In this document: positions 8,950-32,700 of the stretch, in pieces
How the letters are laid out: every line of letters begins with the position of its first letter
Position numbering within the stretch: the stretch's first letter is position 1
From: a virus
Length of the DNA: 64,000 nt
Direction: 5' to 3' (one strand)
Virus record (IMG/VR): IMGVR_UViG_3300032087_006189
The notes under the pieces: model-generated
Told to the model about the DNA's origin: nothing
Database searches by the model: none
Seen by the model: only the letters and a program-made list of their open reading frames with translations
Translations under genes and position numbers: made by a program

Positions 8950-10352
8950 TCGATCTCGTAGCCAGCAACGTCGAGCATGTGGGCGGCGAGCTCAACGACA
9001 TCATCTGCCGAGGAGCGCTTTTCGCCCAGGTACTTCTTCCGCGCTTCGGGAGTCATCTCGGACCCGGCCGCGCTGCCGAGGAACCCACGGAGGGGGCGGT
9101 AAATACCCTTTTCGCGAAGATCCTTGTCCTTGGCGAGGGTGACTCCTACGCCTCCGCCGAGGGCGCCGCCGCCGAGGGCACCAAGAAGAGCTCCGCCAGC
9201 AGCGCCGGCCTTTCTCACCTTCTTGTTTGAGGTGAGTGCCCCGATCCCTGCGCCAAGAGCGCCGCCAGCTGCCGCACCCATGCCGTAGCCCTTGCCGTAG
9301 CCCTTGAGGTTCTTCTTCATCACGTCACCGGAGTGCAGGTACTGGCCCAGACCCCGATCACTCATGCGCTGTGCGCGCTCCGTAGCCATGTCGGTGTCTC
9401 GCTGACCCGCGCTCTCCATCCGGTCCTTCTTTGCTGCGATCTTCTCGGCGGTGTCGTACGCAACATCAGCGCCGAACTCATCGGAGATCATGAGAAGGGC
9501 TGCAATTTCTTCGCCGTCGAAGGAGGCGTTCTTCTCGGCCTTCTTCTTGTCGTGACGCTTCTTGAGGGCGTACGCGCCGCCGCCAGCGAGAGCGAGGCCG
9601 CCTGCAGCGAGGCCGCCCTTGGCAAGGTTGCTCATGCCCTTGCCCTTCTTGCCGGGAACCCTCTCCATGGCGCCCTTTGCGCGCCTGACGAGAGCCCGAG
9701 GATTCAGCCGCTCGTTGAGCTCGCTGGCCGAGGGGGCAGCGGCTTCCTTCTCGATCTCGTCGACGTATGCGCGAGCCATGTGACGGCCGAGGAGCTCAGC
9801 CTCAGCGAGCTTCTCCTGAGCGTCGGCGACCTTCTGGATTGCCTCTTCGTCGCCGATCTGCAGGGGCAGAACATTCTCGACGTAGTGATCGTACAGGTCA
9901 GTAAGCTCGTACTGGTTGAGCGCGTTGAGGTCGATGTCCTCTGCGGAAGCAGTCTTCTGGAACATGTCGAAGACGATCTCCTCATCGGAGGCCTGCTTCT
10001 CGCCCTCAAACGCCTCGATCTGCTCGGGCAGGACGTTCTCGACATAGTGGTTGTAGAGCTCTGCAAGCTCGTCGTCGGCCATCTCGTCGAGGTCAATGCC
10101 CTCAGCGGCGGCGGTCTTCTCGAACAGATCAACGATTTCGTCGTTCATGGCTGAAGCCTCTTTGGTGTTGTCCGCGTCGGACAGGTTGTTGGAAGCAAAA
10201 TGGGCGTACAGCTCTTCGACTTGATTCTCTTCAAGATCGTCGAGGTTCACGCCTTCGGCGGCAGCGGCCTTCTCAAAGAGACGGACAGATGCCGCCTTCT
10301 CCAGATCTTCAGCCGTGACGCCCCGTGCCTCAAGCTCCTCAAGGAGTGACAT
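8946..10352 (-). CDS. Acidic-repeat scaffold-like protein with C-terminal glycine zippers
   Basis: Probable start ATG 10352; three FxKxAxAE(G/D)(I/V)xL..LYxH repeats; about ten K-x-A motifs. Confidence 0.65.
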
Positions 10353-12285
10353 GGGTGCTCTCGTAGTTTTGGGATTGGTCGTGGTACGAGCGAGGGGCAT
10401 CTTCGGGAGAATCTCCCTCAGCCGGCTGCCCCAAGCCTAATGTAAGACCGGGCCAGTACGCAACATGTAGCATGATATTTGAAAGCTCGACAGAATCTTC
10501 CGCTGTTTTTGCGTCTTGAACAATGTCGTCCGAAAACACATTGGGCAGCGAGATTGCCGTAAGATCGGGCTTTTTCTCCACAATGCCCAGTCGGTAGGCG
10601 TTGTAGAGATCTCCGATCTCCTCGAGTCCATCAACATGCTCGAAACTCCCAATCTTATCCATGGGAGTCGCGCGAATGATGCGAATCTTGATGGCTGACG
10701 GAGCAAATGATCGCTTTCCGAGCATGGGACTCAGTGCATCGATCATGGACTCCATTGCCCCTTGGGGAACAAAGGATGCAGCGTCAAAGGGAGACGAAGA
10801 CATCCGAATAGGTCTGGGTGCGAACACTTGGCGATTGTCGAAGAGACGATCTGCCAACCCGCGATTCTTCTTCAGAAGGATAATTCTCTGGAACTCGTGA
10901 GGGCGAGCAACGATACCGAGTCGTGCGGCGGCACGGAGATTCGGTCCGGGGTTCTCTGCCATCCGGTCGAGAACATCCCGCGGAATCTCGGGGAGGCACA
11001 TCTCTTCTTTGCGGACAATGCTCATCTGCGAAGCAGACGGAGCAGGAATGCGCTTCAGCATCTCTGCGACCTTAGAAAAAGCCGCGGTCTTGATCCCCAT
11101 CAACTCATTTGCGCGATCATTGAAGATCTGCTTGAGGTGTGTGATCTGCTGGGGACTCACCCCGTATCGACGCTGGAATGTCTGAACAGAGATGTCTCGC
11201 CACATCTGAAGTTCGGCAGGAGACATTGTCCCCTGCACCAGTCGTTCTTCCGCCAACCGCTCCTGCATGAAGTACCGAAGTGCTTCACGCTCCAGAGGCG
11301 TAGATGCCGGAATCGTCTGGAGAACCCGAGTGAGTTTTTCTTCCAAAACAAAGTCAGGCATCGGAGCCGAAGCGGGAGCAGGCATTTCCTCTTCTGCGCT
11401 TGCTACTTTCACGACTCTCGGCATGAACGGGTAGATCTTCTGCGTGTACGCGCTCTGCCCCGCAATCCGATCGGTGACGTTCGACATCACCTTCGCAGAC
11501 CGCTCTGCTCCGACAAACACGAATGAGTCGTCGAAGAACCGTGGGTAGTCGTTGTATACGCCGCAGACTCGGCCATCGGGCAGCATCGCCTTCATGCCGT
11601 AAGGAGGAGCTGCGCCTCTCTGGACATGCTTGCAATACTCGAGAGGGGTTCTCGCGTGGTGGTCGCAGATCGAACAGCGGTCATACGGAACTTTTGATCC
11701 CATAGAGGAATCAGGGAACTCCCCATTCTCTATTCGCTGATAAAGATCGAGAGCGCCCATCTTCGCGCACATGTCTCGGATAAGCTCAGAAACGAGAATC
11801 ACTCGCTTCATCCGGTCATCCCAGAAGGCACCCAGAATGAATCCGTATGCCTTGTTGGGGTCTTTGTTGACGTGGTGCCGGAATCGATGTGCGTTGTAGA
11901 AGGTGGGGTAGCCCCAAGTCAGAGATCCCCAACGAGGAAGGGCCTCTGTTTGATTTGCGGCACGACGCCGGGCATCAATGTCCCACACGGGGATGTCTTC
12001 AAAACCTGGTGGAGTCCGACGAAGGCCCTCCTCGGTAAACCAGTCACCGCGGAGGTTGAAGCCGACGTACTCCCCTGCTCCCAAAGCTGAGTTGACCAAG
12101 TAGAGCCGACCAGGCTGTGCCTGAATCGACTCGATCAACTCAATGACTCCGGGGAGGTGTTCTCCAGAAGCGGTCTTGGTCAGGCCGTCAGTTTCGCCCA
12201 ATCCATAAGTCGACCCCGGCTCAACCCTGTGGATCAGGGGAGAGCCGGTGTCAGACTTGCCAGAGAACAGAGAGTACTTCTCCAT
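10339..12285 (-). CDS. Putative prohead (maturation) protease
   Basis: N.RGDWF, FRHHVNKDP..AYG and SSMGSKVPYDRCSIC..C.H give a His/Ser arrangement like HK97/assemblin-fold phage proteases, plus a Zn motif; lies upstream of the scaffold and MCP genes. Confidence 0.6.
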   Translation of the reverse strand: MEKYSLFSGKSDTGSPLIHRVEPGSTYGLGETDGLTKTASGEHLPGVIELIESIQAQPGRLYLVNSALGAGEYVGFNLRGDWFTEEGLRRTPPGFEDIPVWDIDARRRAANQTEALPRWGSLTWGYPTFYNAHRFRHHVNKDPNKAYGFILGAFWDDRMKRVILVSELIRDMCAKMGALDLYQRIENGEFPDSSMGSKVPYDRCSICDHHARTPLEYCKHVQRGAAPPYGMKAMLPDGRVCGVYNDYPRFFDDSFVFVGAERSAKVMSNVTDRIAGQSAYTQKIYPFMPRVVKVASAEEEMPAPASAPMPDFVLEEKLTRVLQTIPASTPLEREALRYFMQERLAEERLVQGTMSPAELQMWRDISVQTFQRRYGVSPQQITHLKQIFNDRANELMGIKTAAFSKVAEMLKRIPAPSASQMSIVRKEEMCLPEIPRDVLDRMAENPGPNLRAAARLGIVARPHEFQRIILLKKNRGLADRLFDNRQVFAPRPIRMSSSPFDAASFVPQGAMESMIDALSPMLGKRSFAPSAIKIRIIRATPMDKIGSFEHVDGLEEIGDLYNAYRLGIVEKKPDLTAISLPNVFSDDIVQDAKTAEDSVELSNIMLHVAYWPGLTLGLGQPAEGDSPEDAPRSYHDQSQNYESTHVTP

Positions 12286-12845
12286 CAGTCGCCCAGTTCG
12301 CCAATGAACTGAGTCAGCGGCTTCATGGTTGTCTTTGCGCCTTCCATGCCTGCTGCCTGAGCAGGGGAGGTTCCCTTACCCTGGATGCTTTGAAGCAGGG
12401 CGGGATCGAAGCGCGGCGCACTCGAGGGATCGTCGGGATCCATTCGGTTGGTCATCACCATGTCGAGAACGGTGCCGGCAATCAGCGGGTCCTTGGAGTA
12501 GTCGGGGTTGACGCTACGGAGCGTCTTGAACGCCATGCGCAGGTTGGGATCATCTGCGCTGCCAAGCTGAGGATTCACCTCGACGACTCGCTTCAGGTCG
12601 CGGTTGAACATCATCGCGTTCATGCCGCCCTCGATTGCCTGCGGAATCTTCGAGCCCGCGTAGGCAAGGGTCGGCGCCGCAACTGCAAGGCCGCCAAGCC
12701 GGAGAGCTGCCTTGTTATCGAGATTGAAGGCCGCCGACTTGCTGAGATCGGATGCGAACTTCTCGAGCCCTTGGAGCTCCTCTTCCGAGATCTCTCCACG
12801 GGCAAACGCAGCGTATGCTTCTGCTGGGACTTCAACTGACATCAC
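12285..12845 (-). CDS. Hypothetical head-region protein with hydrophobic segment
   Basis: EKFAS and SKSAA followed by LGGLAVAAPTLAYAG. Confidence 0.6.
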   Translation of the reverse strand: MMSVEVPAEAYAAFARGEISEEELQGLEKFASDLSKSAAFNLDNKAALRLGGLAVAAPTLAYAGSKIPQAIEGGMNAMMFNRDLKRVVEVNPQLGSADDPNLRMAFKTLRSVNPDYSKDPLIAGTVLDMVMTNRMDPDDPSSAPRFDPALLQSIQGKGTSPAQAAGMEGAKTTMKPLTQFIGELGD

Positions 12846-14290
12846 TGGCCTCCGCCGGGCGTGAATTTGGGATCATTGAGGGCAGATTTCATGCCCTTGT
12901 AGCCGCCGTAGCCTACGCCTGCTGTGGCAAGACCGGCAGTGCCGACCAACGCCGCTCTTTTCGTGTCTTTCATTGCCGCGTCTGCGATATTTCCGGCTGT
13001 TCGAAACATTGCTCCCGGCGCAGCTTTGACAGCCTTTCCGAGACCCTCGACGATGCCGGCACTCTTCTCACCAAAGAGCGCCGACTTGAGGGCCTCATCT
13101 GCGTAGGCCAGGTTCTGCTCGATGTCGCCAAGCGCGATCTCGAGATGAACTCGCTGGTTCTCCAACGCGGCAACCTTCGTGAAGGCAGAAGGAAGGGGGT
13201 GGTTCGGGTTCACGTCACCAAAGGAGGCGTGTTTGTTGATCCCGAGACCAACTGTCTTCTGAACCTTGGTGTTCAGAAACTCGGAGAGATCGGACGCAAC
13301 CTTCACCGCGCTCTGCTGAGAAGTCTGGTCCCAGTCGGTGCCGTTAAAGCACGCATGGAGGATGTCCTCAAGCGCAGCGCCATCCTTATAGGTGGCGTAT
13401 GCGATCTTCGACAGCTCCCGACGCGCAGACATCAGAGCCGTGTCTGATGCAGCGAGATCGGAGCGGATCTTGGCAGCGGCCTCCTTCGTAGCGGAGTGCA
13501 GCTTGCGAAGATCGTGCATTCCCTGAGCCTGCGCATACGGATCGTGGTGGTCCGTGCTCGCAGTCTTCATCACCTCATCAAACGCATTTGCGGGCTTGAA
13601 CTTGAATCTACGAACTTCGGGAGCAGAAGCAGACTTCACCATGTCGAACCGATGGAGGATGTGGTGCCCAGGATCGTACAGTACCTGTCGCGTCCCACCA
13701 GACATGTCTTGATAGGTGCGCGCGTTCTTGGGGTTTGAGACATCAGAAAGAGGGACCTTTCTCTGGTCATGCACGATAGGCGGGGAGCCTCTGCGCTGGC
13801 TGACAGATTGAAGCTTCGAAAAGACGGACGGGGCGAGACCCTTGTACGCCCCCGATTTGCTCTTCCACTCTTTTTGTCGGCTGCGGATACCGGAAAGGTC
13901 TCCGTGGCTTGGCCTGTCTCCGGGAGACAGCATGTGGACCGATCTGGAAGCCGTTTTTTCTGTCATAAGTCCACCGCTGGGAAGAGTTGTAGCCCTCTGG
14001 GCAGATGCGACCTTCTCGGACTGAAGGATCTCGGCTGCGATCTGCGCATCCGGCGGATCGAACACGATGTATTGATCGGCCCCACATGCCTGCTTGTGCA
14101 TGCGCTCGTATGTATCGTGGTATGTCATTTCGCAAATACGGCGCACATGCTCGGAGGTGAGGTGTGCGCCACATGCACTCGCCTGCTTCACCACTGCTTC
14201 GGTGAGGGGAGTGCCGTTTGCGAGGAAGTCTGAAGACGCACTTCGGGCCAGGCCCTTCAGGTAGTCTTTGGTGATTGTAGGGCCAAACAT
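12842..14290 (-). CDS. Head-region protein with many K-x-A motifs
   Basis: VKQAS, EKVAS, EKTAS, VKSAS, MKTAS, TKEAA, VKVAS, NKHAS, TKVAA, EKSAG; Gly-rich C-terminal segment. Confidence 0.65.
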   Translation of the reverse strand: MFGPTITKDYLKGLARSASSDFLANGTPLTEAVVKQASACGAHLTSEHVRRICEMTYHDTYERMHKQACGADQYIVFDPPDAQIAAEILQSEKVASAQRATTLPSGGLMTEKTASRSVHMLSPGDRPSHGDLSGIRSRQKEWKSKSGAYKGLAPSVFSKLQSVSQRRGSPPIVHDQRKVPLSDVSNPKNARTYQDMSGGTRQVLYDPGHHILHRFDMVKSASAPEVRRFKFKPANAFDEVMKTASTDHHDPYAQAQGMHDLRKLHSATKEAAAKIRSDLAASDTALMSARRELSKIAYATYKDGAALEDILHACFNGTDWDQTSQQSAVKVASDLSEFLNTKVQKTVGLGINKHASFGDVNPNHPLPSAFTKVAALENQRVHLEIALGDIEQNLAYADEALKSALFGEKSAGIVEGLGKAVKAAPGAMFRTAGNIADAAMKDTKRAALVGTAGLATAGVGYGGYKGMKSALNDPKFTPGGGQ

Positions 14291-17936: not shown

Positions 17937-18189
17937 CCTTCTGGGCGCGCTCTACGGCTGGGACATACTGCCGCAGGTGGACCCCCTGAAATGGGTGTTC
18001 CACCTGCGGCTGAAGCGGCACATCCACAAAGATGAGGTCCCCTTTTTTAGGTCCCTCCTGAAGGAGTGGTGCGAAGCCAATGATGCCGTATACAAGAAAT
18101 CCCACTGGAAGAAGTGGGATTTCAAAGCAGTGATCTTGATCAAGGGACTTGGGCCGGTGCAGGACAACTCACCATTTGAAGTAAAGTAA
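17890..18189 (+). CDS. Hypothetical protein
   Basis: Probable start MSLRWIP; ends just before a convergent gene. Confidence 0.55.
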   Translation: MSLRWIPAAAKSFERSLLGALYGWDILPQVDPLKWVFHLRLKRHIHKDEVPFFRSLLKEWCEANDAVYKKSHWKKWDFKAVILIKGLGPVQDNSPFEVK

Positions 18190-18197
18190 AGACTTAC

Positions 18198-18821
18198 CTA
18201 CTTTTGCCGCTTGATGTTTTCAGCGGCAAGTCCGCTTGCCGCTCTGTTTGATATCATTTCGTTTAGCTGTTGTGGATGCCGGCGCAGCCTGCTTGCTATT
18301 GCATTTCTCGACCGTTGGTCTGCGTACTCCTGCCGGATTGTCCGAGAAAAGACTTTGAGCTGTTCCGGCGGAATTCCTCCGCGATGATTTAGAGCCGGGG
18401 AAAAAATAGCAGTGCCAAATGCTCCACTGGCCTCCGGACTCTTCATAGAAAGTCTCTTTTTGACCTTGTCATCTACATAGACAGCGTAGACATCCGACGT
18501 ATCACGGGTGTCAAACCAAGTTTTGCCGTAGTGCCCGAACGCTTGGGCATAGTTGGGCAGTGGGCTCAGATACACCGATTTTTGCTGGAGCGCAGATCGG
18601 GCGATTTCTTTTTTCGCGAGACGATCAGAAAAGCCTTTGCTCGCTTGTCGGCCCAGTCCACCCGGAGTCAGTCCGTCTTTTTCAATTGCTTTTCTGCGGT
18701 CAGTAGTGGTTCCGTGAAACAGCCAAAAGCCTTTGGGGCGTTTGGGATCGACAAAAAGACCCCTCTTGGAGTCGTACCTTATATTCTCAGGAAGACCTGA
18801 GACATAGGCAGTCTTCTTCAT
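18198..18821 (-). CDS. ADP-ribosyltransferase-fold protein (Tpt1/KptA-like)
   Basis: LFHGTT...AIEKDGL, SVYLS....A..F, VYAVYVD, GGIPPEQL. Confidence 0.65.
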   Translation of the reverse strand: MKKTAYVSGLPENIRYDSKRGLFVDPKRPKGFWLFHGTTTDRRKAIEKDGLTPGGLGRQASKGFSDRLAKKEIARSALQQKSVYLSPLPNYAQAFGHYGKTWFDTRDTSDVYAVYVDDKVKKRLSMKSPEASGAFGTAIFSPALNHRGGIPPEQLKVFSRTIRQEYADQRSRNAIASRLRRHPQQLNEMISNRAASGLAAENIKRQK

Positions 18822-19276
18822 CGGTGCCGGTTCCTATAGAAGTCATCGGCAAACCTAGAGTGTGCGGCAGTGGTTGTCCCGGCGTCAAAGCCTGCAAGCA
18901 GGTTTTCCTTGAAGACCTTTTTGCTGGCTTTTCCTCCTACCATGCCTTCTGATAGGCCAATATGCGCAGCCCGTTCCGCTTTTTCGGGGTCGATTCCATG
19001 CTTCTTTGCAAGCTGTGGGATCATGCGAACGGCAGAATCAGACGCATACGGGGATAGATCATCTTTGCGCGCGGACTGCAGATGGTGAACACGGCCATCA
19101 TTTGCCGATCCTTTTAGGTCCCGCACTCCGATTGACCCTTCTCGCAAAGACGCCAAAGCTTGCCTCTTTTCTTCTTTTGACCCCTTGAACCAGCTGGGCA
19201 AGGAGGCAGATGCACCCTTCTCGGACCAAAGGGGATGATCTTCCAGAAGCATTTCGTATGCAGCAAGCTTGTCCAT
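18818..19276 (-). CDS. Leader-bearing hypothetical protein A
   Basis: Start at ATG 19276 (AGGAG RBS): MDKLAAYEMLLEDHPLWSEKGA. Confidence 0.7.
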   Translation of the reverse strand: MDKLAAYEMLLEDHPLWSEKGASASLPSWFKGSKEEKRQALASLREGSIGVRDLKGSANDGRVHHLQSARKDDLSPYASDSAVRMIPQLAKKHGIDPEKAERAAHIGLSEGMVGGKASKKVFKENLLAGFDAGTTTAAHSRFADDFYRNRHR

Positions 19277-19277
19277 G

Positions 19278-19637
19278 TCAGGACTCCTGAAGGCAGTTGT
19301 CCACCAGACCCAGAAACTTCTCGGTGTAGTGACCGTAGTTGAAGAAGGGCTGATCGCACACTTCTTTCGCCCGCACGCCGAGAGACTCGAGCTCGGGAAC
19401 GATCGCAGCACTGAAGGCTTCGGTCTTGCCGAAATGCGCTTCGATGATCTCCGCAAGGAAGTTGCGGAAGTCAGGGTGCCGGACATTGAAGAACTGGTAG
19501 ATCAAGTCGTCGTTCTTGCGCACGATGGTCGCGCGGAAACACTTGCCTCGGTACTCCGCACGGGGAGGAACCGAAAACTTGACCTCGTGTCCTGGCTTTG
19601 AGCGATCAGGATCTTGCATGAAGTCAGGGGTACTCAT
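19278..19637 (-). CDS. Hypothetical protein
   Basis: 119 aa, coupled to its neighbours. Confidence 0.6.
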   Translation of the reverse strand: MSTPDFMQDPDRSKPGHEVKFSVPPRAEYRGKCFRATIVRKNDDLIYQFFNVRHPDFRNFLAEIIEAHFGKTEAFSAAIVPELESLGVRAKEVCDQPFFNYGHYTEKFLGLVDNCLQES

Positions 19638-20209
19638 CAGGCGACATCCACGTAGAGAGTGAAGCGCGCTGCGGTATCCGCATTGTGAAGCACAATGTTT
19701 GCCCAGTTCGCAGAGACAGGGACTTCCATTGCGTACTTTGTCCCAGAGGGAGTGAGGAGGCTCTTGTCGATTGTGAACTCCTTCACATACGCATCGAACT
19801 TCTTGAAAGAAGCATTCTCTGAGAAGTGGAGCCCTACGAACCAGTCTGTTGAGGTGGCCACATCTGGATCTCCCAGATTTGACAGGCGCAGGGACAGATG
19901 GAGATCGTTGGAAGAAGTGGGAGTGTCTACCTCGATCCCAATGATCAACTTCGATGCGTTCGCGACATTGATTCGCGATGAGTAGTACCCAGCAGTGATT
20001 GCCGCCGAGATGGTACCCGACGCCTGCCCGTTGTCGTAGACCGGCGTGGTTGACCGATCCTGTGTCGCGTCGTTGCAGATGATCGACAGGAAACCAGAGC
20101 TGTTGACTGTGTAGTCAGGGCTCCCAACCAAGCCGGGAATGTTGTTCTCTACCAGAAAGTCGACCATGTCGTTTTCATTCTGGACGGTCTTTGATCTGAG
20201 CACAGGCAT
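19637..20209 (-). CDS. Hypothetical beta-rich protein
   Basis: 190 aa, S/T/V-rich, coupled ORF. Confidence 0.6.
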   Translation of the reverse strand: MPVLRSKTVQNENDMVDFLVENNIPGLVGSPDYTVNSSGFLSIICNDATQDRSTTPVYDNGQASGTISAAITAGYYSSRINVANASKLIIGIEVDTPTSSNDLHLSLRLSNLGDPDVATSTDWFVGLHFSENASFKKFDAYVKEFTIDKSLLTPSGTKYAMEVPVSANWANIVLHNADTAARFTLYVDVA

Positions 20210-21072
20210 TATCTGCTCTCCGACTGGAGGATTTCATCGCGGGATCTGTTGCTGACAGACCCGGTTGGTGCCAAGTCTATCAAACTGGGCACCTTTTTGT
20301 TGCCGTGAAGAACTTTGAACTTCTCGAACTTCTTGAGCGTTTCCTGGAGCGCGGTGTCTCCAGCCTGAACGCGCTCATCGATTCGCGCAAGGCCGCGGGC
20401 AAGGTTGCCCAGCATCTCTACCTTCTTATCCGACAGCGGAAGCGTCCGAGTCTCGAGGAAGGTGTGGTACAGCTCTGCCCGCACTTCCATCATAATCTTC
20501 TTGCCGTCAAGTTCGCGACGAAGACCGAGACGGTAGCCAGCAGCCTCTGGGCCTGCGCGCACAGCAAGCTGGTACGCAGACTTGAGGTGGTATGTCCTCT
20601 CAGAGGAATCTCGTTCGAGGTACTCAGCCCAGTTCCCGATTCCCATGATGTCCGGGTTCCAGAAGTAGTGCTTAAACTCGGCAATCGCCAAGTCAGATAC
20701 CTCGTGCCCGAGCTCTTTTAGCTGGTGCGATGCTTCGTGGAACGGGACTCCACTCATCACCAGTGTCTCTGTCTTTTCGCGCAGAGTGGGTGAAAGCAGA
20801 ATCTTCTCACGCATTTCTGTCGTGTGCTTGTCGGGATGCACAAGCGAGTAGATCTTGTGCTTCCGCAACCAGCGCGTTGTGGGACGATGCTTAGAATCCC
20901 ACGGGCGAAAGTCAGCAGGGACCTTCGACACTGACTCTTGGCAGCGCCGAAAGTCCTCTTCGCCAATCTCCGACAGGCCGTGAACCTCAAGGTTCAGATT
21001 TACGTCGTCATGGGACAGAGCTGCCCCAATCACGAGAAGGTATTTGACGAAGTATTCTGCTGGATGAGCCAC
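20209..21072 (-). CDS. Hypothetical helical protein (terminase small subunit candidate)
   Basis: 287 aa with an HTH-like centre and C-terminal coiled coil, ~3 kb upstream of terL; function speculative. Confidence 0.5.
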   Translation of the reverse strand: MAHPAEYFVKYLLVIGAALSHDDVNLNLEVHGLSEIGEEDFRRCQESVSKVPADFRPWDSKHRPTTRWLRKHKIYSLVHPDKHTTEMREKILLSPTLREKTETLVMSGVPFHEASHQLKELGHEVSDLAIAEFKHYFWNPDIMGIGNWAEYLERDSSERTYHLKSAYQLAVRAGPEAAGYRLGLRRELDGKKIMMEVRAELYHTFLETRTLPLSDKKVEMLGNLARGLARIDERVQAGDTALQETLKKFEKFKVLHGNKKVPSLIDLAPTGSVSNRSRDEILQSESR

Positions 21073-21084
21073 TGCTTAGAGTCC

Positions 21085-21633
21085 TTAGTAGCGGTACGGG
21101 CTACCGTAATGACGCCCGTAGTCATCTCTGCGGTCCACACGCCGCTCAAGCCGATCAAATCTGCGCATCTGTTCGCGATGCCTACGGTCACGCTCGTACG
21201 CCTCGGCTTCGCGCCGTGCGCGCACCTGAGCCAGTCCAATATTGATCGTATGCTGCCGGTACTTCCCAGATCGGTTTAGTGCCTGCATACGCTTGATCTC
21301 GTCTGCATCCGCCGCGGACATGACCCCGCCGATGAGTCCGCCGGTCAGACCGCCTCCGATCACGCCGCCGACTACGCCTGGGACCCCGGCCCCAAGTCCG
21401 ACCAGACCGCCGAGCCCTGCACCAAGTCCTCCCCCGACAAGCACCGCTTTGCCGAGAGGAGTCCTCTTTTCCTTGCCCTTGGCCTTGGCGTACGCCTTCA
21501 TCTTGCCCGTACGCTCCTTTATGGGCTCGAGAGCCTCAGAGACATCTGGCTGAGAGGCGCCAAAGACATATGCCTCCTTCGTCCACAAAGGGTGATCTTC
21601 CAAAATCAGTTCGTATGCTGCGAGCTTGTCCAT
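21085..21633 (-). CDS. Leader-bearing glycine-zipper protein B
   Basis: MDKLAAYELILEDHPLWTKEA followed by a long GxxxG zipper. Confidence 0.75.
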   Translation of the reverse strand: MDKLAAYELILEDHPLWTKEAYVFGASQPDVSEALEPIKERTGKMKAYAKAKGKEKRTPLGKAVLVGGGLGAGLGGLVGLGAGVPGVVGGVIGGGLTGGLIGGVMSAADADEIKRMQALNRSGKYRQHTINIGLAQVRARREAEAYERDRRHREQMRRFDRLERRVDRRDDYGRHYGSPYRY

Positions 21634-21647
21634 ATCAGAACCTCTTT

Positions 21648-22037
21648 TTATAGGATCTTGGTGGGCCCACCACTAGGTGCCGTAGTAGCGTACTGTGAAA
21701 GATCGATGTCATCCGGGCCCAAGTCGGTGAGCTGCTTGGGGGCCGTCTTCTTTGGCAGCATCTTCTGTCCGCTTCCGCCGCGACGAGAAAGCCGGTTGAT
21801 GCCAACTCCTGCAAGGCCTCCAGCAAGCGCTCCGCCTGCAGCCCCGGCAAGCATCCGACCCCTCTTCTTGTCGGGGTCGTCTGTAGACGCGCTACCAGCC
21901 GCTCCTCCGGCTATGCCACCCGCCGCAGCTGTAGCCGCGGGGACCCCGAAGGCGCGAAGCTTGGACATAGAGGAGCCCTCTTTGGTCCAGAGAGGATCTT
22001 GGACCAGTAGCATTTCATAAGCAGCGATCTTGTCCAT
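21648..22037 (-). CDS. Leader-bearing glycine-zipper protein C
   Basis: MDKIAAYEMLLVQDPLWTKEG followed by two Gly/Ala zippers; GAGGA RBS. Confidence 0.75.
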   Translation of the reverse strand: MDKIAAYEMLLVQDPLWTKEGSSMSKLRAFGVPAATAAAGGIAGGAAGSASTDDPDKKRGRMLAGAAGGALAGGLAGVGINRLSRRGGSGQKMLPKKTAPKQLTDLGPDDIDLSQYATTAPSGGPTKIL

Positions 22038-22044
22038 AATTTCC

Positions 22045-23541
22045 TCACACAGAATAGGACTTGAGAGACTTGAGGCCGTTGATCACATCCTCAAGTGCGA
22101 ACATCGCCCGGACTGCAGCAGTCTTGGGGATGCTCTGAAGACCGACCTGCGCGGCAAGAACCACACTGGCAAGCTTGGTCGAGGCTTCCTCAAGCTGTGG
22201 AAGGAACTCGATGTAGGTATCGACGTTCTCCGGGTTGAGGAAGTTGAGAGAAAGTACCGCGTCTACGGAAGCGGTGTCCACCAGTGCTGATGCCTTCTTG
22301 TCGAAGGTGATCGCTGAGATCTCCTTCAGGAGATTCACGCGCTGGGGGATTGCTGTATCCAGCATCTCTGCCGCGGCTTCCTTGAGCGAGTCTTCGTAGT
22401 GCTCTTCCCGCGTCGAGAGGGGCTGTAGACCGAACATGCGAATGGGCTGACCAGAAGAAGCAGCCTTTTCGAGCACGGCGGCACTGAGGTTCTGCGGCAT
22501 ACCTGCAGCAGCCAGCCAGAAGACGCCATCCACCCAGTCGTGCTCACCAGAGCCGACCTTCTCAAAGACCGGTCCGCCCAGTCGGCAGCCGCCGTCCCAT
22601 GCGCGAATCTCGACCATGGTGTGATGAGCGTTGGCCTGAGCCGCCTTCATCAGTTCCTGGCCCATCGAGAGCTGGACGGGGTTCTCGAGCGGCATGAACT
22701 TGAAGTCGGGCGGGATTGCGATGTCCGTGGTGGACGACGCAACGGGCTTCATCAGACCGGGTGACGGGATGATTCGCAGATCGTTCCCGTTCATGTCCTG
22801 TGCCGCGAAGTAGCCCTTGCCCTCAACCTCCACCTTCGTGACGATGTTGTAGGGCACAGTACACATGATGGCCTTGCCGTTGGTCTTTACGAAGACCCCA
22901 AGGCCGCGCACTTCCGCCTTGTCCGGGATCGGAAGGTTGTAGTTCACTCCCACCAAGACACCGGTGACCATGGGCTGAACTGCGTAGGCGCTTCCGTTCG
23001 TGAACAGGCTCATTCCCGAAGGACCGCCCTGCACTGGGTCAAACAGTCCAGGGATGACATAGCCAACCAGCTGCTTGCCTGTGGCAGCATTGGTCACCTT
23101 GTACATGCCGAAGCCTTGGGCAGGAGCAGCCTGCTCCGCCATGGGATCGGGCTCAGCCTGCACATTGGTCAGCGTTGCAGCGCCCTGCTGATCTGCTGCC
23201 TGAAGCATCTCAGGGGGAAGAGCCTGCTGCGCCTGCTGGGCACTGACCTGAGTTTCTTGCGGAGCCATTCCCTGCGGAGCAGCGGACACCTTGATGCTGT
23301 AGCCGTAGCCGGATGGACGAACCTGGATGACATCAGTGCCATAGCTAAAAGCTGATGAGGCAATCGAGGCCAGCTTCGATACCGGCTCGATGGGCCGCGA
23401 GGTCAGGCGATGCAGACACTCCATCACGGACGCGTTCTTTTCGATCATGCGGCGGACTGCAGGATCTTCAAACTCATCGTTGAAGCGCTGAAAATCAGAC
23501 TCGTTGATGGTACCGGCGATTGCCGAACAGATGGTGCTCAT
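22045..23541 (-). CDS. Head-region core protein with K-x-A motifs
   Basis: Start MSTICS (ATGA overlap); EKNAS, SKLAS, EKAAS, LKEAA, DKKAS, TKLAS, PKTAA. Confidence 0.65.
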   Translation of the reverse strand: MSTICSAIAGTINESDFQRFNDEFEDPAVRRMIEKNASVMECLHRLTSRPIEPVSKLASIASSAFSYGTDVIQVRPSGYGYSIKVSAAPQGMAPQETQVSAQQAQQALPPEMLQAADQQGAATLTNVQAEPDPMAEQAAPAQGFGMYKVTNAATGKQLVGYVIPGLFDPVQGGPSGMSLFTNGSAYAVQPMVTGVLVGVNYNLPIPDKAEVRGLGVFVKTNGKAIMCTVPYNIVTKVEVEGKGYFAAQDMNGNDLRIIPSPGLMKPVASSTTDIAIPPDFKFMPLENPVQLSMGQELMKAAQANAHHTMVEIRAWDGGCRLGGPVFEKVGSGEHDWVDGVFWLAAAGMPQNLSAAVLEKAASSGQPIRMFGLQPLSTREEHYEDSLKEAAAEMLDTAIPQRVNLLKEISAITFDKKASALVDTASVDAVLSLNFLNPENVDTYIEFLPQLEEASTKLASVVLAAQVGLQSIPKTAAVRAMFALEDVINGLKSLKSYSV

Positions 23542-23786
23542 TTCAGAAATCTCCGGCGAAGTCTCTCGGCTACGGTGGGGGCAGAGGAAGTCTTCATGCG
23601 CCCAGCGGCAACAAAATCGTCGCACACACTGGCGGGCTCTGCCTCAAAAGAAAACTGCTCGCAGTATCCAGATCCATCGTTGGTTGCTCTGAAGTACGAA
23701 CAGACCTCACAGCGGTTATCCCCCGCTGTGGGGCCATAGTTGGGAGCGTCTTCAACTCCCGCTATTTTTGGGAAAAAGTGAAACAT
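23538..23786 (-). CDS. Small 4-Cys protein, HiPIP-like spacing
   Basis: Y..CEVCSYF...GYCEQF......VCDDF, flanked by PKIAG and MKTSS. Confidence 0.55.
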   Translation of the reverse strand: MFHFFPKIAGVEDAPNYGPTAGDNRCEVCSYFRATNDGSGYCEQFSFEAEPASVCDDFVAAGRMKTSSAPTVAERLRRRFLK

Positions 23787-25699
23787 CAGGAAGCCGGGGC
23801 GGTGGGCGGAGCGTCCGCAATGTCACGCCACTTGTCTTCGCGCTTGCGGAACATGTTTTTGAGGCGAGCACCGACTCCTGCCTTTGCCTGGCGAGCCTGC
23901 TCTGCGGCGGCCTCTCGGGCTCCAGCAGCCATGTTGGGAACCGCGTTACGAACCTGCCTCTCTACTCTCTTGTCGATGTCAGAAACATGCTGCCCCATAG
24001 CTTCGTTGATTTTGTCGACCTTCTTGTCCAGTGTCTTATCGACTTCCTTCATAGCTTCTCGCGCGGCATCTCTGGCCTTACGGTCCATGAAGGTTCCGGC
24101 TTCATCAGCGACACGCTTGATTTGCGGTACCGCCAGCTTCTTCACTGCGGCCGTACCGCCAACCCCGAGTCCACCTCCCACTGCGGCGTCAATTGCCGCC
24201 GATCCTGCGTACTCCTTCACGCGCCGCTTGAACTCATTGGAGTCAATCTTCCCGGAACGTCGATCTCGCATGTCTTGGATCATCTGATTCTTGTTTTTCA
24301 GCAGGGATCGAGTTCCCATGGCTCCTGCACCAAGGGTTCCCATTGCGACATACGGGTTCTTGAGTACGGAAGCAGACTTTACTGCCTGCGGATCCTCAAG
24401 GGTTCCTACTCTCGGCATCCCGATCTCGGCTCGCTGCTGCTGACGCTTGGCAAGTCCGCGCTCCTTGAGGCCGATATTTGCGGCGGAAATCGCACCAGAG
24501 GTAATAAGCCCCTGCTTCATTCCCTTTTTTGCCCCAGCTTGTATCGCCTTCAGTCCACCCTTTCGGGCTCCAAAGCCTCCTCGGACGCCAGCTACCGCAA
24601 GTCCTGCACCTACCGGAAGAGCAAGGTTCTTGAGATTTGACTTGAGCCGGCCCCCGAGCCCTTTCTGGGCCTGGTATCGGTCTTCAGTCTCTCGTCCGCG
24701 CAGCTTTGCGATGGTGCGAAGGCGGTCAGGGTCCATGGTGAACGCATCTGCTTGCGCCCCCTTCTCTTGGAAGTAGACACCGGGAAGCCCGGCGGCAGAT
24801 GTAACGCCGCCACCAATCAGCGCTCCCTTCAGTGCCGACTTCTTGGCATCTGATCTGTGCATTTCGGAGGCATCTCGGAGCATTTCCTTTGCGGTATCTC
24901 CCAGCTCCCTTGCGCGGGCAGACAGGTACTGGCGCTGCGTGCCGCTAAATGCCTTACGGGCGCCGGCCTTCGCTGCTGCAGCTTGATCGGCCAGTCGCTT
25001 GAACTTCTTTGAACTGCGGAGAACTCCCTCCGCCTTCATGGCGCGCAGTGCCCCCGGCGCGTACCCAAGGCCGGCACCAAGACCGATTCCCGTACCGATC
25101 ATGTGCGCGACATTTGCACGGCGCTGTGTCGTATCTCTCGCGTTGCTGCCTCTGGGGCGAGGATTGGGAGCAGAGGAAAGCTTGGTGACGCCCATCGACG
25201 AAGTTCCAGCCCCAACAGTCCGGCCGAAGCCCTGACGCTGCTGGTACGGCGGGTACATCTGGTCGATGAGGGACTTCTGGCGGTGCGGCTGGCGTGCTGG
25301 ACCTTCGAAGACTGCGGGATTGAGCAGGGCAGCCTCGACCCTCTCTGAAGTCAGGGGATAGACATTGCCACCCAGCTCGAAGGTATGGAAGGGCTGGAGC
25401 TGTCGATCTGCGATGATCACGGGGATCTTGATCATGTTCTGCGGGTTCTTCGACTCGGTCGCTGCAGCGGGATCGTTCTTCGCCATCAGCAGTGCATGGC
25501 CGAAAGCAAACCCAGCCTCGGGCTCTACCCGCTGCAGGCTCAGATCGACCTCGTACTGACTGAGGAAGGGCAGCTGCTGGTGCAGATTGCTCAGCACATG
25601 CGCGGGCCACTTCGTGTCGTCATCCGGCATCTTGGCAATCGACGCCTGCTTCTCGAAGAAAGCATGCGGATCGACCTCGGGAAGGAAAAGAGGGGTCAT
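23786..25699 (-). CDS. Globular N-domain plus several glycine-zipper modules
   Basis: FFEKQAS, TKLSS, EKGA and VKSAS delimit the modules; GAGG RBS. Confidence 0.7.
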   Translation of the reverse strand: MTPLFLPEVDPHAFFEKQASIAKMPDDDTKWPAHVLSNLHQQLPFLSQYEVDLSLQRVEPEAGFAFGHALLMAKNDPAAATESKNPQNMIKIPVIIADRQLQPFHTFELGGNVYPLTSERVEAALLNPAVFEGPARQPHRQKSLIDQMYPPYQQRQGFGRTVGAGTSSMGVTKLSSAPNPRPRGSNARDTTQRRANVAHMIGTGIGLGAGLGYAPGALRAMKAEGVLRSSKKFKRLADQAAAAKAGARKAFSGTQRQYLSARARELGDTAKEMLRDASEMHRSDAKKSALKGALIGGGVTSAAGLPGVYFQEKGAQADAFTMDPDRLRTIAKLRGRETEDRYQAQKGLGGRLKSNLKNLALPVGAGLAVAGVRGGFGARKGGLKAIQAGAKKGMKQGLITSGAISAANIGLKERGLAKRQQQRAEIGMPRVGTLEDPQAVKSASVLKNPYVAMGTLGAGAMGTRSLLKNKNQMIQDMRDRRSGKIDSNEFKRRVKEYAGSAAIDAAVGGGLGVGGTAAVKKLAVPQIKRVADEAGTFMDRKARDAAREAMKEVDKTLDKKVDKINEAMGQHVSDIDKRVERQVRNAVPNMAAGAREAAAEQARQAKAGVGARLKNMFRKREDKWRDIADAPPTAPAS

Positions 25700-26798: not shown

Positions 26799-29700
26799 CT
26801 ACAAGAAAGAGAAGAATCTAGTCTTTTTGGGTTGGGCAGTCTGCGACTTGTCGGCGGGCTTTGGAGTCGCCGTCGATAGACTTACTGGCGTCACAGGCTT
26901 TGGTAGTCCTGGGGTCTTTACTGTCTGCGAGGGCTCGAGGCCAAACTCGGCTCCGTGCGCGATGCCAGAAATCGGGTGACCGTGGATGTCGGACTTCCAG
27001 TTCTGCGCTGCACCTTCGATGTATGTTTCCTTGAGGCGCTGGAAGTTCAGTCGTGCCATCCAGTCTTCCTGCCCTGCAAGAGGCATCTGGTTCATAGCCT
27101 TCAGCTTTGGCTTGTGCTTGATGGGACGCTTGCCCATTGCCTTCAGGTCGCGGTTCTTTGCCTCGACCTCTGACATCGGTACAAGCTGTCCGCGCAGGTA
27201 TGAAGAGTCATCTCCTGGATCGTCGATGCGGGTCAAGTCGGTCATCGCACGAATCACCGTCTCAATGTTTCTGCGCCTCTCGTGCCCGGTAGTCGGCACA
27301 TACAGCGCACTGAGGGAATCGGTAATGTGGTTTCGAACCGCCCCCATGCTCTTCGTAATCCGAAGAATGTCATGGGGATTTTTTCTACCCGTAGAAAGCG
27401 CCTCGGCCTTCTTGACCTCGTATCCTACGCGAATCTGAGGAAGGAGCTGGTTCGTATGCGGAACGACATGCTTCTTCCCATCGATCGTTACAGTCTTTCC
27501 GCCCAGTGCGTCTGTCTCAATCTTTTGGATCTTCCCAGAAATCTCGGCAAGAGTCGCCGATCCCTTCAGAGTTGAAGGAACCTTGAACAGGTCCTCTGCT
27601 GCGGTGAAGTAGTCGCCGACATCGCTCTCTCCACCCACACCGCCAGTGTGGAAGGTCTTCATCTGCATCTGCGTGATCGGCTCACCAAGAGCGTGGCCGG
27701 CGATAACCCCGACATTGGTGCCGACCGTGTAGAGCGTTCCCCGCTCGTTGAGGCCGTAGCAGGTGGAGCAGATGCCCTTCACTTCTTTGCAATTCAGGGG
27801 AGAGCGGACCAAGACCTTTGCGGGTCCAGACTTCTTGATTTGCTGTCGAACCTGAGATGTAACCAGCGACCCCCTTTTCAGGGTCTGCCCGTCCTTGAGG
27901 GGGACATCTCCAGCAAGGAAGCGCCCCTCGACATCTGCATCCATAGAAGGCAGCAAAGTACCCTTTGTGGTGCCGCAGTCTTTGGACCGAATCTTGTTGT
28001 CGATGACCGTGTTGATCAGCTCCTTTGTCAGAGCTCCGGGCTTCGCAGTGGAAGATGCCCGGTCGATTGTTCCCTTACGCGCACCGTGAAGTGACGCATA
28101 ATACTGGGAGATCGGAAGTCCTTCTCCGAAGGACTTTGTGATCGGGAATGCAACTGGCTTGTTCATGGGATCCTGAACAATCATGGGGCCCATGACCATC
28201 TGGCTAAACTGGCCCCAGTTTCCGCGTGCCCCAGACTGCGCCCATTCCCACATTCGGTTGTCTTGGCGGCGGTTGTAGCGATCCTCGCCGACAGACTTCA
28301 GCTCCTTTTGGGCCTTCAGGTACAGCTTGACGATCTTGTCGTCCTTGCTTTGCTGGCTGCCGCCGCTCTTTCTGATCTTTGCTTCCTCTGCCTTGTACTT
28401 CTTTAGAACCTGGTCCCGGATCTCCTTGCCGTCGTGGAAGTCATTCAGACTGAAGCTTGACCCGTTCTTATAGGACAGGTTGAAGCCCAGATTCTTCCAC
28501 TGATCGATCATTTTGGAGAACTCTTCTGGATTGGCTCTCGCAATCTCGGTGGCAAAACCCTTCATGCCGCCCTTGGCCATACGAAAATCCTTGTCGTACA
28601 GCAGGTCGTCTCGGTTTTTGAACTCCTTAGGGAGAGTGCTGTTGATCAACAATCGGCCCGGTGTCGTTGGACGCTTGTAGCCCATCACTGTGATCACATC
28701 ATAGGACTTCAGCTTCCCGGCCTTGAGGGCCTTGATTGCTTGCACATCCGTGTATGTGCCGGACTTCTTCTTGCCCCATTTGGTCGCCTGATAAATACCG
28801 AGAACGGCGTCCATACTCGGAGCAACCATCAGCTTATTGCTGGTAGGAGAAAACAGATTCTTGGAAGGCATCATGGCCTTTGCCTCGTCCACCGCCTTTT
28901 CGGTGATCGGGACATACATGGCCATCGTGTCGCCATCGAAGTCAGCGTTGAAACCGCCTGTGACGAGGGGATGAATTTTGATGGACTTCCCTTCTACAAG
29001 TTTCGGGCGGAACGCCATGATTGAAAACATGTGGAGAGCGGGGTCGCGCTTCATCATTGCTGGGCGGTCTTTGATGACTCTTTCAAGGGCCTCATAGACT
29101 GCTGGGTGCTTCTTCTTGACCATGATCCGCGCTTGCATCGGAGATGATGCGCGGCCCATGTCCTTGACCAGAGCCTTGATGACGAACGGCTTGTACATCT
29201 CGAGCGCCATCTCTCGGGGCATGCCGACTTCATCCAGTGGCATCTCAGGGTCTGGAGTAATGACAGAGCGACCAGAGAGGTCCTGTCGTTTACCCAGAAC
29301 TCCAGATTGGAAGAATGACTGCTTCGGCTGGTTCAACCCAGACAGCTTGTCCATCAAGCTGGGAGCATGCCTTCCCTCAATCTGCATCCCTGTCAGCCGC
29401 AGAGACTTGACCAGCTTGTACACCTCGGCCTGGTTCTTTTGGATTTCCTGAACCGGGAGGCGCTCCTTCTCAGACTGCTTGAGCTGGCGAACCATCGCCC
29501 CGGTCTGTGCGTACATCACATTGACGGGATCGATAATCTGTGTCCCATCGAAGCCGATGCTCACCCTTCGCAGTGTCGGTGGAAGGATCGGCAATACAGA
29601 GTTCATGTAGGCGTCGACCGGCTTTACTCCCAGATCTTTGAGAGCGCGAAGATAGCGAACTCGCTTGTATCGGACATTCAGCTCCGCTTCTTTTGCGGTC

Positions 29701-32700
29701 TTGAGCTCGGCCTCTGCCTTCTTCAGCTCAGCATCGACATTCATCTTTGAGAGCTTCTCTTCAATGACCTTGAACCCAGACTTGCTGCCCACGGCCCCTT
29801 CAGCAGTCAGCAGCTTTTGGAACTCAGGCTTCTTCATCCCAAGAAGAGATCGAATTGGTTCCTCAAAAAGAGGATTTGGAACTTTCATCCCGAGGTCCAT
29901 GTGGGACCACTTCTCTCCTTGGAGGCCTCCGGTCTTGCCGCGGTCGAAGAGACCGCCTCTCTCTTCTTTGGTCAAAGACCCTTTCGCAGACAGAGTCTTT
30001 TCTGGGAATGCCAGCGCACCAGAGCTCTGTGCCTTTGTCTGGGCATCCGTCATCGGCATGAGGGAGTACTCTCTGCCGCTGCGCTCGGAAGACACCCCCA
30101 TCGCCTTCATGTACTTCTGGAACTGAAGCATGGAGCGCGGCACCTTTGGAGTAGGTGGGCGCTGCCCAAGAAGAATCCGCTTCCAGGTGTCCTCTGCCTG
30201 TTCCTTGTCAGACTTGTAGGTCTGCATCTCGCGGAGGTTGAACTTCGCGCCATGCGCGAGCAGCGTGTAGGTATCGAGGCCACCAATTCTCTGGCCGCCC
30301 TTTCCGATACCTGAACCCTGCGCTGCCTCACCGGTAGTCTTGTATCCGTAGCCAGCTCCACCAGAGCGAGCAGAGATCTTCTTCTCAGCCTGGTGGTCGA
30401 GCTTCAGCAGATACTGCGGCCCAGTGAATACTGGTCCAAGACTTTCTCCAGTCTCGGGGTCGAACAGCTCTTCGGTATCTGAGATCTTGTGCTTCTTCAG
30501 CTCGGACTTCACGAGTGCCGAGTAGTCGACATCCGGATTGAAGTTGTCCACCACGAAGGGCTTGCCAGTCTTGAGCGCGATCTTGCCTGCCGCAGTCTCG
30601 AGAATCTGCCCGGGGTTCATACGGGACGGAACACCGGCAGGAGACATCAGAACCTGGACTGCGTTGCCCTTCTTGTCCTTGGGCATCTGATCATCAGGAA
30701 GGATTCTAGTGACGATGCCCTTGTTACCATGGCGACCAGAGAGCTTGTCTCCGACTTCCATGGTCTGCTCGGTACGGATGAAGACCGCGATCTTCTTTCC
30801 AGTGCTTACGACACGGACGACCTTTCCTCCGTACTCGTGCTTCCAGCGTTCTTCGGACGGGTTGAAGTCTCGGATTGCGCCCTTGAGCTGCTTCTTGATG
30901 TTTGCGGTCTCTCGGCTGTTGTCTTGCTTTACCAGCTTTGCGATCAGAACATCATCGGGCTCTACAACAGTGCCGACCTTTACGATTCCGCGGTCATCCA
31001 GTTTACGGAGAATGTCCGGGGTTGCCTTTTCAGGACCTGCATACCGACGCCACAAAGCCTTATCGACCACCACATTCGAATACATCTCCGTCTCAACAGA
31101 GTGAAGGTGGTTTGACACGAGCTTCTTCGCTGCAGACTCTGAGATGACGATTCCGTCCTCAAAGTTGTAGCCCTTGTACGGGATGTAAGCGACGCGCAGA
31201 TTTGTTCCCAGAGCGAGCTTTCCGCCCTTCGTGAAGTTGGAATCTGCGAGAAGCTGCCCCTTCCTGACTTTGTCCCCGACCTTTACGGCTGGAGTGGAAT
31301 CCAGCATGTGCTTTGCGCCGTTCAGCGGGTAGTTGTCGTACAGGGCGTGGACATACCTCTTCCCGTCGGCACCCTTCACTACGATCTGCTTCTTGTTGAC
31401 GCTGATGACTTGGCCAGTTGCACTGCTCGTGACCGAGGCGGTCGATCCTACTAGGTCTTCGTATGCTGCACCCTTTGCTGCGGCCGTCTGAACAAGTGGA
31501 GCTTCGCGCTCTTTGAGGCCGACCGCTTGCTCCTGGTGCTTGGCAGCCATCATCGAACGGTTGCCGTTGTCGTTCTGGATGAACGGAATCAGGTTTGCAC
31601 TGACCGCAAACAGCAACTTTGCTGACGGCAGGACATAGTCCACCTCTTTCCACTGGCGCTTTGAGGTGTTGCGATCCTTGTCGTAAACAACCACATCAGG
31701 CGTCTTTGGCTTTACAGAAACAGTGCCGTCAGACTTCTTCGTAATCTTGACCTGATCGGGGAACGCAACAACTGCCCGTTCCAGATCTGCCGCTGACTTT
31801 CGCTCTACCTTACCAGTACGTACATTCACAACCTGCGCCATCAGATCGTGCCCGACCTTCTGGGCTCCCATCGGCACATGCAGGTGGATACCAGTCTGCT
31901 GGCTCTCTGGGGTCTGCAGAGGATCGAGCACACCCAGATGACTGGGGTTGATCATCTTGTCCTGCATCAGGTTGACATTGTCGCCCTTGATCCCACCAAA
32001 TGCTGCGCCAAGAATCGTCGTCTTCGTGTGATTGGAAACGAACTGCAGGGGATTGGTCTGGGTGGGAAGCTGTGCCGCCTTGAACGGCTTGAGAATCGCA
32101 GCGCCGTACCCAGATGCCGACGCAGGGATGATCTCTTGGATTGAGTTCTTGCGGTCAACATTGTTTCGGATCTTGCGAGTCAGGGAATATGCCGTCTTCC
32201 CCTTTGTCAGCTCTTCTGCGACAAAGTCTTCGACCCCGTAAAGGCGCTTGTTCGCGATTGACTGTCGGTCGTCTTCCTTCGCGCGCCCCTTACTGATGTC
32301 CACCAGCTTCTTCGCAGAGAGAAGGAGTGCCTCTCCAGTGATGCTGGAAAACTCCTTTCCGAGCGCAGACTTCATGGTCTGCTTGCTGACTTCCGCACCC
32401 TCAAAAGTAGCGCGGGTAAATTCTCGCGCAACGGCAAGGCTGGGCTGCTTGTACTTCGTCTTGTCCCTACGACCTTCAATGGCTTCGTGAAATTTGACGA
32501 TGTCAGCTGGCTTGCTGTACCGCTTGTTGACCTCGTAGACCCCATCTCCGAGCGCAGCTCGAATCTTGGCGTCGTCGATTCCCATCGCGTTGAGAATGGG
32601 GATTACTGGAATCTTACGAGTAGAAGATCCTCCGCTTTTGATCTGAAGGTAGATGAAGCCAACCTTCTTGGGGTCTCTTCTTTCGATGAAGATGTCGAAC

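Follow-up and report, generated by a model that had tools for sequence, protein, structure and literature searches.

A shared N-terminal leader with a K-x-[AG] junction on unrelated basic proteins of an uncultured phage lineage, a candidate capsid-address and cleavage system of the T4 type

In a 64,000-nucleotide stretch of viral DNA (IMG/VR record IMGVR_UViG_3300032087_006189; hereafter the window, meaning this whole stretch at its full length), three otherwise unrelated proteins begin with a common leader of 21-22 residues that ends in K-x-[AG], a lysine with alanine or glycine two positions further on. K-x-[AG] is under selection as a motif, being enriched in the head-scaffold proteins of the phage and avoided in the cargos that follow the leader. 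From these sequence patterns, cleavage of the leader at K-x-[AG] appears probable, and we give a slightly better than even chance to the fuller proposal that the leader is an address-and-cut propeptide of the type represented by the capsid-targeting sequence (CTS) of phage T4, which would direct the cargo to the capsid and be cut by the phage's own protease. The three genes, referred to as A, B and C, encode the following products:

18818-19276, minus strand: leader protein A, 152 amino acids; leader in residues 1-22 (19211-19276), ending W-S-E-K-G-A; cargo of 130 amino acids with an isoelectric point (pI) of 9.9.
21085-21633, minus strand: leader protein B, 182 amino acids; leader in residues 1-21 (21571-21633), ending W-T-K-E-A; cargo of 161 amino acids, pI 10.3.
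21648-22037, minus strand: leader protein C, 129 amino acids; leader in residues 1-21 (21975-22037), ending W-T-K-E-G; Gly/Ala-rich cargo of 108 amino acids, pI 10.3.

A six-frame scan of the window with the pattern M-D-K-[LI]-A-A-Y-E-x-[LI]-L-x-x-[HD]-P-L-W-x-[KE]-x-[AG] retrieved exactly three copies, all on the minus strand and each at the start of a gene (19276, 21633 and 22037), in agreement with the original prediction, which had picked out these three proteins from the sequence. They could be aligned over residues 1-21 only and were unrelated past K-x-[AG], so that the abrupt end of similarity claimed at this site was also found, and it recurs in the wider family described below. Despite their otherwise unrelated cargos, proteins B and C both contain Gly/Ala-rich stretches; the cargo of B harbors a Gly-zipper stretch and zero internal K-x-[AG], and has an orthologue in a related genome (G005). 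The start of gene A had been described as hidden inside a longer open reading frame (ORF) call, and position 19276 is the credible start because the conserved gene upstream of it (19278-19637) stops 1 nt earlier, AGGAG precedes it at 8-12 nt, and it corresponds to the 152-aa product of public gene calls, which is 98% identical (P0013). Pfam and PHROGs gave zero matches for the three leader proteins as well as for most neighbor genes, and a blastn search of the leader region against INPHARED phages gave no match.

The leader was then traced in public sequence collections, as the original prediction had proposed. A degenerate DNA pattern search placed it on six IMG/VR contigs, and a leader profile detected 51 clusters when run against 5.8 billion proteins and 144 representatives when run against 1.84 billion, far more than chance would produce. 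Pooling the profile matches that carry the leader at residue 1, after the removal of a few repeat-type false matches, resulted in a family of 148 proteins with the consensus M, [DN], K, [IL], A, A, Y, E, [ML], L, L, x, x, H, P, L, W, x, K, E, A. The Trp at position 17 is present in 147 of them, and K-x-[AG] follows it within ten residues in 145, the junction being K-E-A in 87. Conservation is lost sharply at this point, the columns falling from >70% at position 21 to ≤17% at position 22. Among 15 DNA copies of the leader, synonymous differences were near saturation (pS 0.85) and nonsynonymous ones were few (pN 0.20; ratio 0.24), while the 40 nt upstream of the copies were on average 29% identical; selection therefore acts on the leader peptide and not on the DNA, as had been surmised from the synonymous codon differences between the copies in the window. 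An amphipathic helix was also considered for the leader and dropped, the hydrophobic moment being low (0.16 per residue).

The cargos of the 148 proteins fall into 97 unrelated BLAST groups, which speaks against simple paralogues with full-length homology. They are small and strongly basic (median length 98 aa, median pI 10.4, 91% above pI 9), in contrast with the leader (pI 4.5). A GxxxGxxxG pattern occurs in 63 of the 148 and an apolar stretch of at least 20 residues in 52; glycine-zipper families, in about 12 cargos, were the only Pfam matches, and no enzyme domain was detected among the cargos by Pfam. The modular arrangement of leader, K-x-[AG] junction and variable cargo is hence well supported, whereas the accompanying suggestion that the cargos are effectors is not, given their small size, very basic character, frequent glycine zippers and lack of enzyme domains. 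Separately, in some proteins the likeness to the leader is limited to its first seven residues (M-[DN]-K-I-A-A-Y), past which they diverge (L007:8599-9456; G001 11234-11677; G005 around 12791); this heptad contains a K-x-A-A of its own.

The distribution of the junction motif was examined by counting each Lys with Ala or Gly at +2 against shuffles of each protein. In the head-scaffold block and its orthologues, 224 K-x-[AG] were observed with 121 expected (1.85-fold; z +11), compared with 139 and 123 in the replication proteins (z +1.6) and an exact 55 and 55 in TerL, the portal and two giant proteins (z 0.0). The leader cargos showed the opposite departure, with 111 observed and 259 expected (z -12), and retained it when one cargo was taken per cluster (71 and 164; z -8.8). 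Enrichment in the head scaffold, neutrality in the replication proteins and avoidance in the cargos make up the pattern expected of a protease site, which should be common in proteins destined for degradation, at chance level in proteins that never meet the protease and rare in proteins that have to survive it. Both the head block and the cargos departed strongly at the +2 spacing only, the cargos staying near expectation at all others from -5 to +5, and R-x-A was not depleted in the cargos. The extended form K-x-A-[SA] occurred 55 times in the minus-strand block at 1-39000 with 13.4 expected, versus 21 and 13.6 for the reversed motif; in the replication block it occurred 7 times with 3.0 expected. 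Many other head-region proteins carry the motif within their first 40 residues, and the head module of Salmonella phage Arash exhibits the same K-x-A code; in its capsid protein (gp226), V-K-E-A is located in the N-terminal region.

Among the head-region genes of the window, we found candidates for the protease and for its substrates:

10339-12285, minus strand: candidate prohead protease, 648 amino acids; N-terminal gp21-like domain (about residues 17-260) and C-terminal helical domain.
4970-6100, minus strand: candidate major capsid protein, 376 amino acids; weak match to phrog_2522 (E 0.0018); Atlas clusters named major capsid protein at 0.97-0.98.
12842-14290, minus strand: head-block protein, 482 amino acids; 18 K-x-A sites with 4.8 expected.
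8946-10400, minus strand: scaffold-like acidic protein with repeats, 484 amino acids; 13 K-x-A sites with 6.2 expected; C-terminal Gly zipper.

For the 648-aa protein, PHROG comparison gave a weak hit to head maturation protease (E 6e-4), and a phmmer search of it against PDB sequences returned nothing. Its AF2 model (pLDDT 76) found T4 gp21 (5jbl) as the top specific PDB match with a Foldseek probability of 0.80; model residues 17-260 were superposed on gp21 with a VIA Z of 6.3 and a root-mean-square deviation of 3.6 over 136 of 166 residues, and several named prohead proteases were among the BFVD matches. Across 40 orthologues (41-79% identical), K-x-A-[SA] is kept at residues 37-40, 293-296, 399-407 and 593-596, that is, once just before the catalytic domain, once at its C-terminal edge and twice in the helical C-terminal half, and these sites adjoin hypervariable, indel-rich linkers of low pLDDT. 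As a side observation, several homologues of the protease (P0112, P0130-P0132, P0151, P0158, P0166 and P0169) are about 1000 aa long and contain the intein/homing-endonuclease domains Hint_2, Intein_splicing and LAGLIDADG_3. The capsid-protein candidate has more than 1300 homologues and carries at residues 23-26 a K-T-A-A that would end a likely N-terminal propeptide, with K-[TA]-A-A kept in 120 of 120 homologues; its AF2 model, for which the alignment was shallow and its homologues were all at least 72% identical, reached a pLDDT of 37 and leaves the HK97 fold unconfirmed. In the 484-aa protein, an acidic repeat of about 55 aa occurs three times in tandem, and every copy ends in [LM]-F-x-K-x-A-[AS]-A-E, an end that resembles the P-L-W-T-K-E-A of the leader.

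The same motif also delimits modules shared between proteins. In one leader protein (P0356), the whole cargo, from W-T-K-E-A to the stop, aligns with residues 109-217 (13640-13966) of the 482-aa head-block protein (E 2e-23), which is encoded next to the protease; the module in this protein opens at T-E-K-T-A|S and closes two residues before V-K-S-A|S. In another (P0028), a second, internal T-K-E-A|S is followed by a module that is also present in G002 and G004, where it is preceded by a different leader of 17 residues that ends in K-L-A, with the two K-x-A triplets in alignment. These two alignments indicate that the K-x-A motif is the common joint for cargos that stand alone, for modules of polyproteins and for two leader classes, and on this comparison cargo modules are exchanged at K-x-[AG]. 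The second leader class, M-[DN]-S-L-x-L-x-F-F-x-D-E-L-x-K-L-A, was found in G004 (L020:6237-6494) and G002 (43016-43270), and one cargo occurs behind either class. N-termini related to this class are also seen in the window, reading M-F-H-F-F-P-K-I-A and ...F-F-E-K-Q-A (23538-23786 and 23786-25699). Altogether, the K-x-[AG] junction behaves as a protease site would in four independent sequence tests, namely the enrichment in head proteins, the linkers of the protease, the avoidance in cargos and the equivalence of modules.

The phage belongs to an abundant, uncultured lineage with genomes of roughly 150-190 kb, the CheckV completeness of relatives implying about 185 kb. Its TerL is GpA-like, a portal candidate lies at 33967-36021, and for both TerL and the protease the nearest phage is the orphan Arash; the lineage is not T4-like, and its only cultured relatives (Arash, Vibrio phage D69 and phage G) are all distant. 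Five related genomes (G001-G005) are syntenic with the window, with TerL 77-91% identical, and even at this proximity the number and position of leader genes vary: they occupy the gap between the 526- and 287-aa genes, the region past the 119-aa gene, the gap between the RNA polymerase and 358-aa genes, and a site elsewhere in G002, while one 168-kb contig carries four leader genes in tandem. Judging from this variation, the leader genes are accessory and mobile. Large leader-bearing contigs also encode homologues of the protease and of the capsid protein, and among the contigs that could be checked the leader was seen only on those of this lineage. In G001, two adjacent leader genes are preceded by 30-nt stretches (18141-18170 and 18803-18832; L009) that are identical at 29 of 30 positions, which suggests that a cassette was duplicated along with the end of the preceding gene.

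To account for these features, we propose that the 21-residue leader would be an N-terminal propeptide ending in K-x-[A/G] as the recognition motif of the phage's gp21-like prohead protease. The leader body (K3, A5, A6, Y7, E8, L10, L11, H14, P15, L16 and W17) would dock the small basic cargo onto a conserved prohead component, a role proposed since these extra invariant residues are absent from the other K-x-A sites. Inside the prohead, the protease would remove the leader and free the cargo, which would stay with the DNA. The idea of a T4-like loading system, advanced in the original prediction, thus survives in its modular architecture, in a junction with protease-site statistics and in an apt T4 analogy, and is not supported as regards effector cargos.

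Several points weigh against this proposal. The presence of the cargos in virions, the targeting role of the leader and the cutting by the phage's own protease are all steps that we infer, and the prohead receptor of the leader is postulated. The 648-aa protein is identified as a gp21-like prohead protease with moderate confidence, at moderate scores, and hhalign of its alignment against T4 gp21 gave no match. About one-third of the cargos have long apolar glycine-zipper stretches that would also fit membrane-active peptides of another role, and the leader body itself opens with an invariant K-x-A-A (M-D-K-I-A-A; residues 3-6), which would be odd if every K-x-A were cut. Finally, in a distant contig (L007) the array of four leader genes lies among non-structural genes, and the leader profile matched neither Arash nor D69, no cultured phage with the leader being found.

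The main rival, to which we assign a low probability, sees in the leader a pro-region that is cut and has no capsid address, its function being to hold in an inactive or soluble state a cargo that is toxic, cationic or membrane-active, up to the time when the late head protease acts; the cargo would then work from the cytoplasm, in lysis, host takeover or superinfection exclusion. The cationic cargos with their frequent apolar and GxxxGxxxG stretches, the restriction of their Pfam matches to glycine zippers and the acidic leader all suit such a pro-region, and the avoidance of the motif in cargos fits any protease-processed product equally. A mere neutralizer, however, would not need at least 11 near-invariant positions across 148 proteins. 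Moreover, T4-type prohead proteases work inside proheads, so their substrates must be there (PMC9026906), and one cargo module is also part of the head-block polyprotein encoded beside the protease.

Less probable again is an uncleaved leader that anchors proteins to the capsid, the portal or an RNA-polymerase component, with K-x-[AG] as part of the binding motif. The peptide is highly conserved on every face and its N-terminal K-x-A-A is invariant, which would agree with docking, and the case for cleavage is itself one made from sequence. Docking nonetheless offers no explanation for the strong avoidance of the motif in cargos, from which R-x-A is exempt, for its placement at the hypervariable interdomain linkers of the protease protein, or for the coincidence of both ends of stand-alone cargos with motif positions in a polyprotein.

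A host sorting or secretion signal, or a leader of the double-glycine bacteriocin or RiPP (ribosomally synthesized and post-translationally modified peptide) type, unrelated to the capsid, is very improbable. In its favor, the leader is short, conserved and N-terminal, it precedes small variable peptides in tandem arrays, and the junction ends in a small residue (Ala or Gly). The leader is however acidic, with a mean hydrophobicity of 0.04-0.26 (Eisenberg), and hence has no Sec/Tat n- and h-regions; the features of Sec, Tat and lipoprotein signal peptides are accordingly missing from it (pI 4.5, no apolar core). Nor does it resemble double-glycine or RiPP leaders, which end in GG, GA or GS, as its majority junction is K-E-A and no transporter or C39 peptidase was found among the neighbors searched. 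Furthermore, the motif is common to the capsid-protein candidate, the protease and the scaffold-like proteins, and the leader is confined to this phage lineage among the checkable contigs. The least credible alternative, that the genes are plain paralogues or recombination products whose shared 5' end is conserved as nucleic acid, for example as a translation-initiation region, has the near-identical upstream stretch of the two adjacent G001 genes in its favor as a sign of duplication, and is already disfavored by the contrast between pS and pN, the divergent upstream DNA and the 97 unrelated cargo groups.

Turning to the genomic neighborhood, genes A, B and C lie in a single tight minus-strand run within the structural region, with gaps of at most 14 nt and the gene order (in aa) 2117, 358, 637, 82, 526, C, B, 287, 190, 119, A, 207. 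Two further members of this run are of note:

26799-33152, minus strand: fused beta/beta-prime multisubunit RNA polymerase, 2117 amino acids, first gene of the run; Pfam Rpb2_6 4.5e-64 and Rpb1_2 3.7e-32.
22045-23541, minus strand: conserved protein directly upstream of gene C; 7 K-x-A-[SA] with 0.5 expected; likely start at M29 of the longer ORF 22045-23625.

The polymerase unites Rpb2 domains 2, 6 and 7 and Rpb1 domains 2-5 in one ORF, and comparison of orthologue N-termini revealed a conserved K-E-A at its residues 18-20. In the distant relative Arash, beta and beta-prime are separate and are the most abundant species in virion preparations, according to a non-stringent proteome. That proteome lists 116 proteins, with coverage values that are not readable as sequence coverage and are silent on termini, and the paper on PaBG contains no cleavage data. 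Searches by tblastn with the 526- and 287-aa neighbor proteins gave no match. The 207-aa gene (18198-18821, minus strand) overlaps the end of gene A by 4 nt and encodes the pattern F-H-G-T ... Y-L-S; ADP-ribosyltransferase families (PARP, Arr and Tox-ART-HYD1) are among the Atlas clusters nearest to it, at 0.90-0.92, which serves as a lead only. In G005, both this gene and gene A are missing at the corresponding site. Within the head-scaffold block, a J-domain protein (8065-8949, minus strand; Pfam DnaJ 1.6e-12) shows the HPD motif, glycine-zipper stretches and a further motif of 10 protein letters (not shown).

A broader scheme can be sketched from the two leader classes and the polymerase, and we regard it as speculative and rather unlikely: the lineage may run a two-address cargo system, in which at least two interchangeable leader classes would dock cargos at different prohead sites or times, and the roughly 100 families of cationic glycine-zipper cargos would form an injected DNA-condensing or membrane-active set, delivered with a virion-packaged fused beta/beta-prime RNA polymerase and released by a head protease with an unusual K-x-A/G| rule.

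The closest functional precedent is provided by the T4 internal proteins, which are variable and basic, carry a conserved, cleaved CTS of 10-19 residues and are encoded at loci that vary between relatives (PMC9026906, PMC3012670). As with the CTS on IPI, IPII and IPIII, which is cut by gp21, a short N-terminal peptide is here common to unrelated, variable, basic proteins, it ends at the motif of the head protease in a phage with a gp21-like protease, and the cargo loci differ among close relatives. The leader system accordingly shares with T4 a short N-terminal peptide ending in the motif of the phage's own head proteins and a candidate gp21-like protease, the cut site being a predicted one. 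It differs in that the T4 sequence M-K-T-Y-Q-E-F-I-A-E has no alignable pattern in this leader, in the length of the leader (21 residues versus 10-19) and in the presumed cut (K-x-A/G versus L/I-x-E); the lineage, known here from sequence alone, is not T4-like, and about 100 cargo families replace a handful. Without likeness to the CTS sequence and with a K-x-A/G junction, the leader system would work like that of T4 and is not a sequence member of it.

Other systems share fewer of these features. In DarB of phage P1, an N-terminal stretch of at most 30 residues is sufficient for capsid targeting (PMC9024508); unlike the present leader, this signal belongs to a single large protein rather than to a family of proteins with a common leader, and no cleavage motif is linked to it. 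In phiKZ-like giant phages (SPN3US gp245), the propeptides of many head and ejection proteins are removed by a gp21-like protease at an A-x-E motif (PMC10052503). Cleavage of the long ones takes place at several copies of the motif, and the same would apply to the K-x-A-rich head-block proteins here, although the motif is A-x-E there and K-x-A/G here, and descriptions of these phages do not include one short leader common to many unrelated cargos. Herpesvirus assemblin, of the same fold class as gp21, cuts after Ala (P1) and before Ser (P1'), and its sites resemble the commonest head-block form, K-x-A|S; it belongs to a different branch of the virus realm and is not known to have a cargo leader or to require Lys. 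The cargo-loading peptides of encapsulins send diverse cargo inside an HK97-fold shell, but they are usually C-terminal and uncleaved, with unrelated sequences, whereas the present leader is N-terminal with a junction motif.

The kind of system is thus known from T4, and the novelty here lies in the lineage, in the length of the leader, in the K-x-A/G rule, in how large the cargo repertoire is and in the avoidance signature. The 21-residue tag with its cut site constitutes a defined candidate for protein packaging, and the combination of scaffold enrichment and cargo avoidance offers a transferable computational test that separates proteins to be cut from proteins that must survive in uncultured phages. 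The analysis also predicts K-x-A/G| specificity for a widespread, uncharacterised head-protease subfamily with relatives in Arash, Vibrio phage D69, phage G, PaBG and phiRSL1. If the proposed address-and-cut role is true, this family would exceed every natural catalogue of a single capsid-address tag to date, as it comprises about 100 cargo families that are unrelated to one another and lies outside the T4 lineage, and it would follow a different protease rule that can be read straight from sequence statistics.

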